64,000 nt of DNA. It comes from Deltaproteobacteria bacterium (GTDB lineage Bacteria; Myxococcota_A; UBA796; CAJQPC01). A model generated the notes under the pieces. That model was not told where the DNA came from. It ran no database searches and worked only from the letters and a program-made list of their open reading frames with translations. This document shows, piece after piece, positions 7,017 through 57,700 of the stretch. Positions within the stretch are counted from its first letter, which is position 1. Every line of letters starts with the position of its first letter. Where the stretch lies: NCBI GenBank assembly GCA_016706815.1, contig JADJIW010000040.1, positions 16,251 to 80,250 on the forward strand, given 5' to 3'. The translations under genes and the position numbers were made by a program.

Positions 7017-7094
7017 TGGTGACCCCAACGGGATTCGAACCCGTGTTAGCGGAATGAAAATCCGCCGTCCTGGACCTGACTAGACGATGGGGTC
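7017..7094 (-). tRNA. tRNA-Glu (anticodon UUC), CCA encoded
   Basis: Reverse complement GACCCCATCGTCTAGTCAGGTCCAGGACGGCGGATTTTCATTCCGCTAACACGGGTTCGAATCCCGTTGGGGTCACCA. It has a 7 bp acceptor stem, anticodon loop TTTTCAT and a TPsiC GGTTCGAATCC. It is close to E. coli tRNA-Glu. Confidence 0.85.
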
Positions 7095-7102
7095 GAGGGG
7101 TA

Positions 7103-7175
<73 letters not shown>

Positions 7176-7213
7176 ATAGAGCGCAGGCGAAGTAACAGGG
7201 GGGGCCGCGCTGG

Positions 7214-27735: not shown

Positions 27736-28094
27736 GACCCCGTCGCCACGACCGTCTCGACGGCTCCTCCCGACCTCAAGCGCCAGGGTGAGCCGCGAGA
27801 CGTTTTAGCCCCGCAGACGACCTCCGCGCAAGCCGCGCCCCGCTCGGGTATAGTGAGCTTGGCCTCTGCCCGGTTCGAGTACAGAGCGATCGTGGTTCCT
27901 CCACAAGTATGTCCCGGGACCCGCCCCTCTCCGTGGTGTGCACGCCTCCTCGTGAGGAAGCCTGAAGCGGGAATGCGGCTCCCCCCTCCTGAGTGGAGGA
28001 GGACCCCAACGCTCACACGGCCAGGGTGGAGGCCACTTTTTTGCGCGGACGCCGACACGGGAACCTCCCCGCCGCCGCCAGGGTCTCCTGCACC

Positions 28095-34602: not shown

Positions 34603-35753
34603 CGGGCCAGAACCCCCTCCGCCGTGGCGCTCGGGCGGTAGATGGTGGGCGCCCGGGCTCCGGCGGCGCTGTTCGCCGAGACGTTGAGCAAGAGCCCCAC
34701 GGCGAAGAGCTGGGCGACGATGGCGGAGGCGCCATAGGACATAAACGGCAGCACGAGGCCCTTGGGCGGCACGATGCCCATGACGACGCCGAGGTTGAAG
34801 AAGGCCTGCAGGCCGATGGCCGCGGTCAATGACGTCGCGAGCAGGGCCCCGAAGAGGTCTTCAGCCTGCCGGGCGACGTGCATGCCGCGCCAGATGAGCA
34901 GGCCGTAGAGCGTCAACAGCGCGAGCACGCCGATGAGGCCCAGCTCTTCACCCAGCACCGAGCCGATGAAGTCGGTCCAGGGCTCGGGCAAGAACAGGTG
35001 TTTGGCTTGGCTCTCGCCGAGGCCACGCCCGGTGAGCCCGCCGGAGTGAAACGCGATCATCGACTGGATGACCTGGTAGCCGGAGCCCGCCGCGTCCGCC
35101 CAAGGGTCCATGAACGAGCGTAAGCGCTTGAGCCGATAGGGCTCGGCCACGGCCACCAAGGCGCCGACGGTGACCCCGAGGCCAAAGAGCGCGTAGATAA
35201 ACCGCGTGCGCAGCCCAGCGACGACCAGGGTGAGGAAGGCCATGCCGCCGATGATCACCGTGGTGCCGAAGTCGGGCTCCATGACGATGAGCAGCATCAA
35301 CGGCACGGGGATGGCCAAGGCCGGCAAGAGCACGTTCTTCACGTCGTCCAGGCGGCCGCCCTTCTCGTCGATGAAGTGCGCCATACACAAGACGCAGACC
35401 AGCTTCGCCAGCTCTGACGGCTGCAGGTTCACGCTGCCCATGCCGATCCAGCGCGACGCGCCGTTGACCCGGTGGCTGAGCCCCGGCACAAACACCAAGA
35501 TGAGCCCGATGATGATCGCCGCGTAGGCCGCCCAGGCGTAGCGCCGCAGCCACTCATACGGCGTGAACGCGATGCCGACGCCGCCGATGATGCCGACGAT
35601 GATCGCCGCGAGCTGGCGTTTGACGTAGTACCAGGGGTCGTCCAGGCGGTCGGCGGCCACGGGCCCCGAGGCCGACTGCACCATCACCAGCCCCAGAATG
35701 AGCAGCACGACGACGAGGCCCATGAGGGGCAGATCAAAACGGCGGGCCTTCAT
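34599..35753 (-). CDS. ftsW: Peptidoglycan glycosyltransferase FtsW (SEDS family)
   Basis: Track ORF, 10-TM SEDS topology. Confidence 0.9.
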   Translation of the reverse strand: MKARRFDLPLMGLVVVLLILGLVMVQSASGPVAADRLDDPWYYVKRQLAAIIVGIIGGVGIAFTPYEWLRRYAWAAYAAIIIGLILVFVPGLSHRVNGASRWIGMGSVNLQPSELAKLVCVLCMAHFIDEKGGRLDDVKNVLLPALAIPVPLMLLIVMEPDFGTTVIIGGMAFLTLVVAGLRTRFIYALFGLGVTVGALVAVAEPYRLKRLRSFMDPWADAAGSGYQVIQSMIAFHSGGLTGRGLGESQAKHLFLPEPWTDFIGSVLGEELGLIGVLALLTLYGLLIWRGMHVARQAEDLFGALLATSLTAAIGLQAFFNLGVVMGIVPPKGLVLPFMSYGASAIVAQLFAVGLLLNVSANSAAGARAPTIYRPSATAEGVLAR

Positions 35754-37041
35754 GTCGTGGCCTCCTGGGCGAGCCGCGCGAAGACGGCCCCACGGTGCTC
35801 GAAGTTGTTGAACTCATCAAACGAGGCGCAGGCCGGGGTGAGCAGCACCGCCTGACCGGGCCGCGCGAGGCGACGGGCCAAGGCCACGGCGTCGGCGAGG
35901 CCAGAGACGACGTGGTGGGGATGCTCCCCCAACCCTTGGGAGATCTCCTGGGCGCTGCCGCCGCAGACGATGACCTCCACCGCCGCGCGTGAGAGCGCCG
36001 GGCGGAGCAGGCCGTAGTCCGCGCCCTCTTTGCCTTGGCCGCCGAGGATCACCACCGCCGGGCGATCGACGCTCTCTAAGCCCACCAAGGCGGCGTCGAC
36101 GTTCGTGGCTTTGGAGTCGTTGATCCACAACACCCCGCCCTGCTCGGCCACGGGCTGCATGCGGTGGGGCAAGGCCGTGAGCGCCGAGAGGTCCAGCGCC
36201 GCCAAAGAGGCGCCCAAGGCCCGGGCCAAAGCGGCGGCCACGGCGGCGTTCCAGCGGTTGATCCGGCCCATGACCTTGAGGCCCGAGAGGTCTAGGCGCT
36301 CCCCCTCGATCATGGCGAAGGATCCATCCTCGCCGAGCAGCACACCGGGCTCAGCATCCAGCCAGCGCCGCTGCCCCGGTTTGCCCTCACAGGCGGCCTT
36401 CAGCAGAATGTCTCCATTGGGGACATAGGCCAGCCCGCGGGCGTCATGTGGTCAAAGAGCTTGGCTTTGGCCGCGGCGTACCCCTCCATCGTCCCGTGCC
36501 GGGCGAGGTGGTCGGGGGTGAGGTTGAGGATCACCCCGGCGTCGGGCGCGAAGTCTCCGGCGAGCTCAAGCTGGTAGGAGGAGACCTCGACGACGAGGCA
36601 GTCAAAGTCCCCGCCCACGGCCTCACACAAGGGCGTGCCCAGGTTTCCGCCGACGAAGGGCCGCCGCCCGACCCCACGCAGGAGCTGCCCGGTGAAGTGG
36701 GTGACGGTGGACTTGCCGTTGGTGCCGGTGATCGCCGCCGTGGGCAGGCGCGGCAAGAAGCGCCAGGCGAAGCCCAGCTCCCCCAGCACCTCCACCCCCG
36801 CGGCCAACGCCCGGCGAACCGGCGGCGCCGCGGCGGGCACCCCGGGGGAGACGACGACGAGGTCCACGTCGGTGAGATCGGCGTCGTCATGGCGGCCAAA
36901 GACGTTGTTTGCGCCCTCGACGCCCTCGGAGTCCGCCTTGAGGTCGGTGAGCGTCACCCGCTCTGCGCCCAAGCGCAACGCCAGACGCGCGGCGGCCCGG
37001 CCCGAGAGCCCAGCCCCGAGCACGGTGACCCGACGTGGCAT
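35750..37041 (-). CDS. murD: UDP-N-acetylmuramoylalanine--D-glutamate ligase MurD, split by an apparent 1-nt frameshift near 36425-36445
   Basis: Two track ORFs (36400..37041 N-terminal, 35750..36343 C-terminal). My translation shows ..KAKLFDHMTPAG, then in another frame LAYVPNGDILLKAACEGKPGQRRWLDAEPGVLLGEDGSFAMIEG, both open through a cccgcggg run. Confidence 0.8.
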
Positions 37042-37062
37042 GACGTTTGGCGGCGCCCATGC

Positions 37063-55845: not shown

Positions 55846-56316
55846 TCAGAGCGACCGGATCATCAGCACACGCTCCGCCAAACGTAAGCCCAGGCGGGCC
55901 TCGCGGGCTCTGAGCGCCAACATGCCCGGCGTCCAGGCGGCCTCGGGCACCACCTCAAAGCCTTCCCGGGCGTAGAACGGGGCGTTCCACGGGAGATGGG
56001 AGAACGTGGAGAGGCTCAGCACACCGGCGCCGCGGTCGCGGCAGAGGGCATAGCAGGCGCGTAAGAGCGCGGCGCCGAGGCCCTGGCGCTGGGCGCGGGG
56101 GTGAACGGCGAGCTCCTCGATGTGGGGGTGATCGTCCAGCGACTCCAAGTAGAGGAAACCGACGGGCTCCCCAGCGTCGTCCTCGGCGATGAGCACCCGG
56201 CCCGCCCGGAGGCCCTCGGCGTAGGGCGCGTCATCGGCGGGGCCCGCGCCGGTCTGGCCGAGCTCGACCCCGGCGGCGTGGAACAAGGAGTCGGCGGCCT
56301 CCTCGATGGGCCGCAT
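55846..56316 (-). CDS. GNAT family N-acetyltransferase
   Basis: The track ORF is extended to 56619 through a homopolymer region. The real start is MRPIEEA at 56316. The acetyl-CoA motif is AVHPRAQRQGLGAALL. Confidence 0.75.
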   Translation of the reverse strand: MRPIEEAADSLFHAAGVELGQTGAGPADDAPYAEGLRAGRVLIAEDDAGEPVGFLYLESLDDHPHIEELAVHPRAQRQGLGAALLRACYALCRDRGAGVLSLSTFSHLPWNAPFYAREGFEVVPEAAWTPGMLALRAREARLGLRLAERVLMIRSL

Positions 56317-56376
56317 GTGGGGGTGGTCGGAGGGCACCCCGAGGCGAATCGTCGGCACCCCCGGGGGCGCAGCCCC

Positions 56377-56435
56377 GGGGGGGGGGGCCCCGCGGCCCCC
56401 CCGAAGAAGACAGGGCCCCGCGGGGGGGGGGGGGG
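56377..56435. repeat. Extreme homopolymer tracts: G11 (56377-56387), C7 (56396-56402), G14 (56422-56435), in intergenic DNA
   Basis: Read directly from lines 56341-56460. Confidence 0.6.
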
Positions 56436-56749
56436 CGGGCGGAGAGGAGGGGGCCCCGGGGGTAGGCGCGAGGATACCCCGCTCGGCGCAGAGAAGAACG
56501 CCTGATCTGTGTACCCCAGAGACAAAAGACCCCGGTCCAAAAGGACCGGGGCTCTTGTGCGATCGGTGAGGCGTTCGGGGGGGCTTTCCGCCGGACCAAT
56601 CAGCGTCTCCGCCGCCCACAATGCAATCTGCGTGCCACGCGCCTGAATCGCCCGATAATAATGGTTCAACCTACACGTATGGTGAGGATCACCCCCCTGC
56701 CGACCCCCTCAAACCGACGAATCGCGACAAAAAAGTCGCAGTTTGGACC

Positions 56750-57700
56750 TCAGGTGCGTAGCGCGGTCGCGGTGAGCAGGTCGGCGAGCTCCCACGGGCG
56801 CTCTTCAGGGTGCAGATGTTGGCCGCCCGGGATGCGGTGAAGCTGGGCGTGAGGCGCGAAGCCCTGGACGGCCTCGGCTTGGGCGTAGGGGTAGAGCGGG
56901 TCGTGATCGCCCCAGATCAGCGTGAGGGACGAGGTTCTCGGCGCGCGGGTGGGCAGGGGCCCGGCGAGGGCGGCGAACCAGCGGGCCGCGGCGAGGCGGG
57001 CGGGGGCGTCGCCCGTCCAGGCCGCGGTGACCAGGGCAACGATGTCGCGCTCCATCGTGTAGGGGTTCACCACCGCGCGGCGCAGGCCCAACGACGAGGC
57101 CAGCCAGGCGTTGAGCGGGCGGGGGCGCAACAAGGTCGTGAGCGCGGCGCGGGTGGCCCCTGCCCCACCCAAGGCGCCCAGCGCCCGGGCGACAGGATCG
57201 ACCCGGGTGATCGGGCCGTTGGTGAGGATGAGCGCGTCGAGAGAATCATCGGGCAGGCCCAGGGCGACGGGCACGGCGAGGCCATGGGCGACGAGCTGCC
57301 GGGCGCCAAGCTCGGTGAGCAGCGCGGCCAAGGCGTGGCTCAGGGCGGGGAGGCCCTCGGCCTCGGGCGCGCGCAGGGTGATGGCGGCGGTGCGGCGCGG
57401 GGCGAGGCGGCGCTGAACCTCACGAAACAGCGCGGCGCCAAACGGCGGCCCGCTGACGAGCGCGAGGAGCGGACCCTCCGCGCCGTGAAGCACCACCTCA
57501 TGCGCACCGAACTGACGCTCTTCCACGAGACCTCCGGGAGTCTGCGGATAGCCGCGCGCTCCGAGGACCGCAAGCGTGAAGACGAAGGCGCCCCACACGC
57601 CGAGGTCGGCGGTGGGGCGTGAAGGTGGCCGTGGGTCCGGGTCTGGTCGCCACCTCCCGGATCCACACGATGGAGTTTTTGGGCCCACGGCCACGCTCAA
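56750..57700 (-). CDS. Alpha/beta-hydrolase
   Basis: Track ORF. The VLHGAEGPLLALVSGPP start is typical of the AB hydrolase_1 fold. The exact start is uncertain. Confidence 0.6.
   Translation of the reverse strand: MSVAVGPKTPSCGSGRWRPDPDPRPPSRPTADLGVWGAFVFTLAVLGARGYPQTPGGLVEERQFGAHEVVLHGAEGPLLALVSGPPFGAALFREVQRRLAPRRTAAITLRAPEAEGLPALSHALAALLTELGARQLVAHGLAVPVALGLPDDSLDALILTNGPITRVDPVARALGALGGAGATRAALTTLLRPRPLNAWLASSLGLRRAVVNPYTMERDIVALVTAAWTGDAPARLAAARWFAALAGPLPTRAPRTSSLTLIWGDHDPLYPYAQAEAVQGFAPHAQLHRIPGGQHLHPEERPWELADLLTATALRT

Follow-up and report, generated by a model that had tools for sequence, protein, structure and literature searches.

The intergenic region upstream of a GNAT acetyltransferase gene carries three homopolymer tracts in close succession in the analysed stretch of 64,000 nucleotides (hereafter the window). 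The question raised by this locus is whether such tracts represent a regulatory device, a private mutation, or sequence introduced during genome reconstruction. Direct reading and a run count place G11 at 56377-56387, C7 at 56396-56402 and G14 at 56422-56435, all given for the plus strand, within a segment (56360-56440) that reads ...CAGCCCC-G11-CCCCGCGG-C7-GAAGAAGACAGGGCCCCGC-G14-CGGGCGG... The gene is on the opposite strand, where the two G runs are read as C11 and C14. Both the presence of the tracts and their rarity agree with the original prediction. In this window of 69.3% G+C, the longest G or C run besides G11 and G14 is 7, and G runs of 4, 5, 6 and 7 nucleotides occur 313, 89, 11 and 4 times, respectively, with none of 8-10. 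Under a model of independent, identically distributed (iid) bases, the expectation for the window is 0.40 runs of G11 or longer and 0.017 runs of G14 or longer, and the empirical fall-off of run lengths is even steeper than this model. No run exceeds 9 in about 52 kb of related contigs or 8 in about 300 kb of unrelated metagenome loci. Given these counts, the occurrence of two such runs inside 60 bp is far beyond chance.

The gene next to the tracts is located at 55846-56358 on the minus strand and encodes a protein of 170 aa, assigned to the GNAT acetyltransferases by Pfam and by its homologues. On this strand it follows an alpha/beta-hydrolase gene (56750-57598, minus strand, 282 aa form) and precedes a DAGK/YegS-type lipid kinase gene. 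Its close homologues (P0001, P0002, P0172-P0175) are all 170 aa long and begin with MPTIRLGV..., which sets the start codon at GTG 56358 and not at the internal ATG 56316. The tracts had been placed 60-120 bp upstream of the start; measured from the true start, they lie only 19-78 nt upstream of it, with G11 occupying positions 19-29, and the distance of 315 bp to the hydrolase stop (56750) was given correctly. All relatives have ATG as the start codon where the window has GTG. A 257-aa ORF running through the tracts was considered as potentially coding and rejected as a spurious high-GC ORF, which overlaps the candidate small RNA and the terminator described below and whose homologues cover only its last 170 aa.

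Syntenic contigs for the alignment of the intergenic region were gathered through exact-protein look-ups. Alignments, BLAST breakpoints and composition delimit a block of 105 bp (56358-56462) that holds all three tracts and is present in only one of 17 assemblies, as 16 contigs from 16 different assemblies span the site without it. Six of the block-free contigs are 97-99% identical to the window and include two sibling MAGs of the same study (L008, L095/L105, L096/L106, L097, L098, L099), and the others are progressively more distant (L009, L010, L094, L005-L007, L001-L004). At the site, the block-free assemblies read ...GCGCCTA followed directly by TGCCGACG..., and in the longer context every one of them passes from ...GGGGTATCCTCGCGCCTA to TGCCGACGATTCGCC... 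with ATG as the start. The BLAST breakpoints invariably fall at 56463/56357, with contiguous coordinates in the other contig. The block therefore splits the ancestral ATG of the GNAT gene exactly after its A (56463), with the TG at 56357-56356 on the other side, and the last G of the block is the first base of the present GTG. The annotated GTG start of MBK7758481.1 (P0174), to which the GNAT translation of the window is identical, is accordingly due solely to the inserted block. As judged from these alignments, the tracts belong to a block private to this contig rather than to a conserved intergenic element.

The junction itself is seamless. The flanks CCTA and TGCC border the block with zero bases lost or duplicated, and neither a target-site duplication nor microhomology was found there. 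On either side, at least 130 nt match the sibling genomes without a difference apart from an additional T at 56490. This T is located 27 nt from the block and is the sole other window-private indel in the well-conserved flanks. In a three-way comparison over 20.7 kb, other strain-specific indels fall in visibly diverged intergenic sequence, and real strain indels in this species measure 8-13 nt. The block also differs in composition, as it is 90% G+C and its gene strand consists of 60 C, 35 G, 10 T and no A.

The position of the block gains importance from the predicted architecture of the GNAT start. A -10-like hexamer, TATCCT (56471-56476, minus strand), is located exactly 7 nt before the ancestral ATG, and a box at this distance is conserved in all relatives, either as TATCCT or, in the most distant one, as TAAGCT. 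Among the 18 genes annotated in a sibling contig, TANNNT at -13 is confined to GNAT, and 13 of these genes have GGAG or GAGG at -6 to -18, while GNAT has no Shine-Dalgarno (SD) sequence. Since TANNNT-N7-ATG is conserved and no SD is present, the GNAT mRNA is probably leaderless, starting at the A of the ATG, with the promoter predicted from sequence. The block would thus occupy the position between +1 and +2 of the predicted transcript. Both a TANNNT box and GGAG require an A, which the gene strand of the block lacks, so that neither can occur in it.

Could the tracts act as a hypermutable switch of GNAT expression, or as a G-quadruplex or i-motif that regulates it? Contingency tracts become prone to slippage at about 7-8 nt or more, so that G11 and G14 are long enough for slipped-strand mispairing, and they are found just upstream of a gene. 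The G4 prediction that had been proposed as a check gives a G4Hunter score of 2.8 at 56422, the highest in the window, and places a canonical motif on the plus strand, the template strand of GNAT, at 56413-56439. The in-silico potential to form a G-quadruplex was therefore confirmed, but the motif is absent from the orthologous position in all relatives and scores of 2 or more are reached at 12 other places in the window. The same lack of conservation concerns the tracts as such, with all 16 other contigs devoid of them. Furthermore, the tracts lie between the sole conserved promoter element, TATCCT (56476-56471; the promoter being a predicted one), and the GTG at 56358, and the block has no -10-like hexamer of its own. 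At this location a change in tract length alters neither promoter spacing nor the reading frame, which removes both classical mechanisms of phase variation. The proposal of phase variation thus finds no support, and a functional switch or structural regulator at this site is very unlikely.

An origin from a miniature mobile element or a REP-like repeat of the genome could be suggested by the size of the block, which is within the MITE/REP range, and by its ends, both of which read CCCCCGGGG and give a 9-nt direct and inverted terminal similarity. However, CCCCCGGGG is a near-palindrome, which makes the similarity of the ends trivial, and the target-site duplication and specific terminal inverted repeats that characterize such elements are lacking. 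Local alignment of the block with the rest of the 64-kb window gave scores within the shuffle null, revealing no donor sequence, and no second copy exists within these 64 kb. Repeat analysis found only low-complexity self-similarity in the block, and its fold, computed as DNA or RNA, is no better than that of shuffled sequences (z about 0 to +1.4). At the tracts, no family was recognized by Rfam searches, whether over the whole window or with permissive settings over 56300-56800. Searching 185,579 GTDB species genomes with a degenerate 23-nt core pattern produced three matches, none of them in a related genome, and two scans of viral contigs with the core pattern produced none. Taken together, we regard a mobile or REP-like element as very improbable.

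The three genome matches belong to one actinomycete MAG and two Rhodobacteraceae (L011 1239-1261, L012 5163-5185, L013 2690-2712). They fall in an unrelated small HTH ORF (...PEKTGPRGPRK...) with unrelated flanks, and were treated as chance. The centre of the block without its homopolymers (CCGAAGAAGACAGGGCCCCGCGGG) differs by one mismatch in 24 nt from a coding motif, VPEKTGPRGPRK, of this small HTH protein in Celeribacter and Salipiger, and the actinomycete MAG has a variant of this motif; the likeness is probably a coincidence. At the protein level, no entry in a database of 5.8 billion clusters covers a translation of the block. With a 217-aa ORF spanning the block as the query, P0005 was the sole protein found, and it does not contain the block. 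A search of metagenome contigs with the GNAT protein gave only relatives of at most 45% identity, and exact look-ups of the GNAT and RecA sequences of the window gave no recorded match.

P0005 originates from a conspecific contig, L008 (ENA ERZ22160080 NODE_9628, coverage 1.7x), which is 98.6% identical to the window and does not contain the block. In this contig, GNAT has lost 79 nt (window 56350-56272), beginning 7 nt into its coding sequence, which shifts the reading frame, and the gene caller joined the remainder of GNAT to an upstream ORF. The deletion can be either a second independent lesion of GNAT or a low-coverage assembly error.

Two explanations for a block of this kind carry most of the weight, and both treat it as private to a single genome or assembly. 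We prefer the one in which the block is an assembly or basecalling artefact, to which we give a probability of roughly 0.5. It is drawn from the combination of a singleton block, a seamless junction, a composition alien to the lineage, no signature of insertion, a nearby error of the type common on this platform, and an otherwise imperfect assembly. A seamless junction would be the expected appearance of noise inserted within a read. The imperfections of the assembly are visible in two genes of the window. In murD, which we take to be essential, a private 1-nt deletion (window about 36420-36450) splits the gene into two parts at 36403-37062, with the N-terminal domain and half of the middle one, and 35753-36451, with the rest and the C-terminal domain. 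In a comM-like Mg-chelatase gene, an extra G at 60039 converts GG into GGG and causes a frameshift, with the gene being intact in five relatives, including both sibling MAGs. Both frameshifts are probably assembly errors.

The provenance of the contig is compatible with such errors. The DAGK protein of the window is common to three NCBI MAGs, including JADJYZ010000037 and JADKFE010000010. In the supplement of Singleton et al. 2021 (PMC8012365), JADJYZ and JADJIW are, among the rows covered, both members of species cluster 487_1, classified as Myxococcota c__UBA796 in GTDB and as OM27_clade midas_s_814 in MiDAS, and three MAGs are given for the species midas_s_814. The same source lists JADJIW as Ejby_18-Q3-R6-50_BAT3C.362, with 20.4x Illumina and 12.3x nanopore coverage. 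By elimination, the MAG from which the window derives would be JADJIW, which would imply nanopore coverage of about 12x. The activated sludge samples, according to the methods given there, were sequenced on R9 PromethION flow cells (FLO-PRO002) and basecalled by Guppy 2.2.3 with the r9.4.1 flip-flop model. Reads were then assembled by CANU 1.8 with corMinCoverage=0, and polished with Racon, two rounds of medaka, and finally Racon with HiSeq X reads (PMC8012365). Sereika et al. 2022 described homopolymer indels as the main residual error of nanopore consensus sequences and homopolymers longer than 10 as rare in bacteria (PMC9262707). A poly-G artefact of two-colour chemistry was also considered as a source and was ruled out, as the Illumina data come from the four-colour HiSeq X.

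According to the artefact explanation, the block would be junk sequence that persisted when the consensus of a metagenome was built from nanopore reads at low coverage. Its source may have been a stalled or aberrant stretch of signal that was basecalled as G/C runs. Long-read polishing would then have left the block in place, and short reads would have been unable to correct it, as reads derived from block-free DNA cannot align across it. The origin of the junk and its survival through polishing are steps that we infer.

Several points argue against an artefact. At about 12x, Racon and two rounds of medaka should normally outvote a 105-nt insertion that only a minority of reads contains, and survival of the block through polishing would imply either very low local coverage or several supporting reads. 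In addition, R9.4.1 tends to shorten long homopolymers rather than create them, and we know of no documented basecaller failure with exactly this pattern. Nevertheless, among the three readings offered by the original prediction, namely phase variation, a G-quadruplex and an artefact, the caution about an artefact is the one best supported by context, in which a singleton among 17 assemblies is found in a window that matches a nanopore R9.4.1/CANU MAG and has private frameshifts. The observation on which that prediction was founded stands, apart from the distance to the start codon, and its interpretation stands in part.

In the other explanation, filler-like DNA would really have been inserted, very recently and in this strain alone, at the +1/+2 position of the leaderless GNAT gene. 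The insertion would have led to loss of its expression, with the homopolymers as mutable but inconsequential passengers. The fact that the block outlasted three rounds of long-read polishing would suggest that several reads contained the extra sequence. Real indels of 8-13 nt do separate strains of this species, and the 79-nt deletion in L008 suggests that GNAT is dispensable in the species, although at 1.7x coverage that deletion may itself be an error. The effect of an insertion can also be read from the anatomy of the locus, as TATCCT-N7-ATG is conserved, GNAT has no SD, and the GUG start is embedded in the self-complementary CCCCCGGGGG. On the other hand, a target-site duplication, genuine terminal inverted repeats, microhomology, a donor and a second copy are all missing, the composition is unlike the rest of the lineage, and none of the 16 other assemblies contains the block. 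We consider a private insertion possible, though less likely than an artefact.

If the block is real, the 5'-terminal AUG would have given way to a GUG placed internally, preceded by a leader of 106 nt that is extremely G/C-rich and offers no usable SD. The locus would then present a neat natural case in which an insertion directly after the first base of the start codon has silenced a leaderless gene. It is also conceivable that such real DNA arose de novo and untemplated at the leaderless transcription start, for example by a template-independent polymerase during break repair, and we grant this origin a small chance. In that case, the gene would have acquired, in one step, a hypermutable leader with the capacity to fold into a G-quadruplex or i-motif, through an undescribed mutational process that yields long G/C homopolymers in a high-GC bacterium. 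Even if the extra DNA is real, the tract lengths of 11, 7 and 14 obtained with R9.4.1 chemistry cannot be trusted.

Under every explanation considered, the feature is not a conserved regulatory device. The tracts are probably not a real feature at all, or at most an ordinary private mutation. As a genetic element the block matters little, being unconserved and placed where switch mechanisms are barred. Its practical meaning is rather that of a warning: however striking G11-C7-G14 looks in a public MAG, noise or a private lesion is its most likely source.

The more promising biology near the tracts is a candidate sigma-54-dependent small RNA of about 90 nt on the minus strand (window 56520-56637), with a predicted +1 at about 56611. 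Its putative promoter at 56637-56622, TGGCACGCAGATTGCA, is a perfect match to TGGCAC-N5-TTGCA and the only one in 64 kb, where 0.01 would be expected. The candidate ends in a strong intrinsic terminator, a hairpin with a U-tract at 56529-56552 on the minus strand, which also delimits the promoter region of GNAT. Relatives show 100% identity over transcript and terminator but only 84-92% in the neighbouring DNA, and the fold has a z-score of -3.4, with no matching Rfam family. An invariant palindrome, GCGAC-T6-GTCGC (56724-56739), is located about 95 nt upstream and could be a site for an enhancer-binding protein or the terminator of the hydrolase gene. In Myxococcus, the small RNA Pxr likewise has a sigma-54 promoter and a size of about 108 nt (PMC5568312). 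The resemblance is one of promoter type and size; the candidate belongs to another locus and another lineage (Myxococcota UBA796).

Elsewhere in the window, the plus strand at 60961-63159 encodes a protein of 733 aa, 97-99% identical in relatives, in which an MVP_shoulder domain (of the major vault protein) and faint Vault repeat matches were recognized. By its sequence, this is a vault-protein homologue from bacteria of an uncultured Myxococcota lineage. Rfam and ARAGORN scans also found an ordinary 6S RNA at 27860-28036 (plus strand), and tRNA-Glu and tRNA-Lys genes at 7017-7176 (minus strand).

Homopolymer tracts with a known role in gene expression allow the block to be compared with established systems. 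Phase variation through promoter homopolymers takes place at the poly-C of Bordetella pertussis fim, and in Neisseria at the poly-G of porA and the poly-C of opc. The locus studied here shares with them a G/C homopolymer of 11-14 nt immediately upstream of a gene. However, in those systems the tract is located between promoter or activator elements and its length sets their spacing, whereas here it lies downstream of the -10-like box. Likewise, their tract loci are conserved across strains and vary in length, while the block was found in no other strain. A second group is formed by intragenic contingency loci, such as the poly-G tracts of Campylobacter and the 7C tract of Mycobacterium tuberculosis glpK. 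Here too a hypermutable G/C run is tied to one gene, and glpK demonstrates that such loci are possible in high-GC genomes, yet those tracts reside inside the reading frame and the present ones upstream of the start codon of the 170-aa protein. If the block is real, the closest counterparts would be indels that destroy a leaderless start, as the predicted +1 A is parted from the start codon and neither a 5'-AUG nor an SD is left, with the difference that the leaderless status is deduced here from conservation of TANNNT-N7-ATG and from the missing SD. The last comparison concerns the residual errors of R9.4.1 nanopore assemblies. These are typically homopolymer indels of 1-2 nt, mostly shortenings, and in this respect differ from a 105-nt insertion with G14 and G11; the likeness consists of a window with private 1-nt indels, in which a singleton block with seamless flanks is accompanied by an adjacent 1-nt error.
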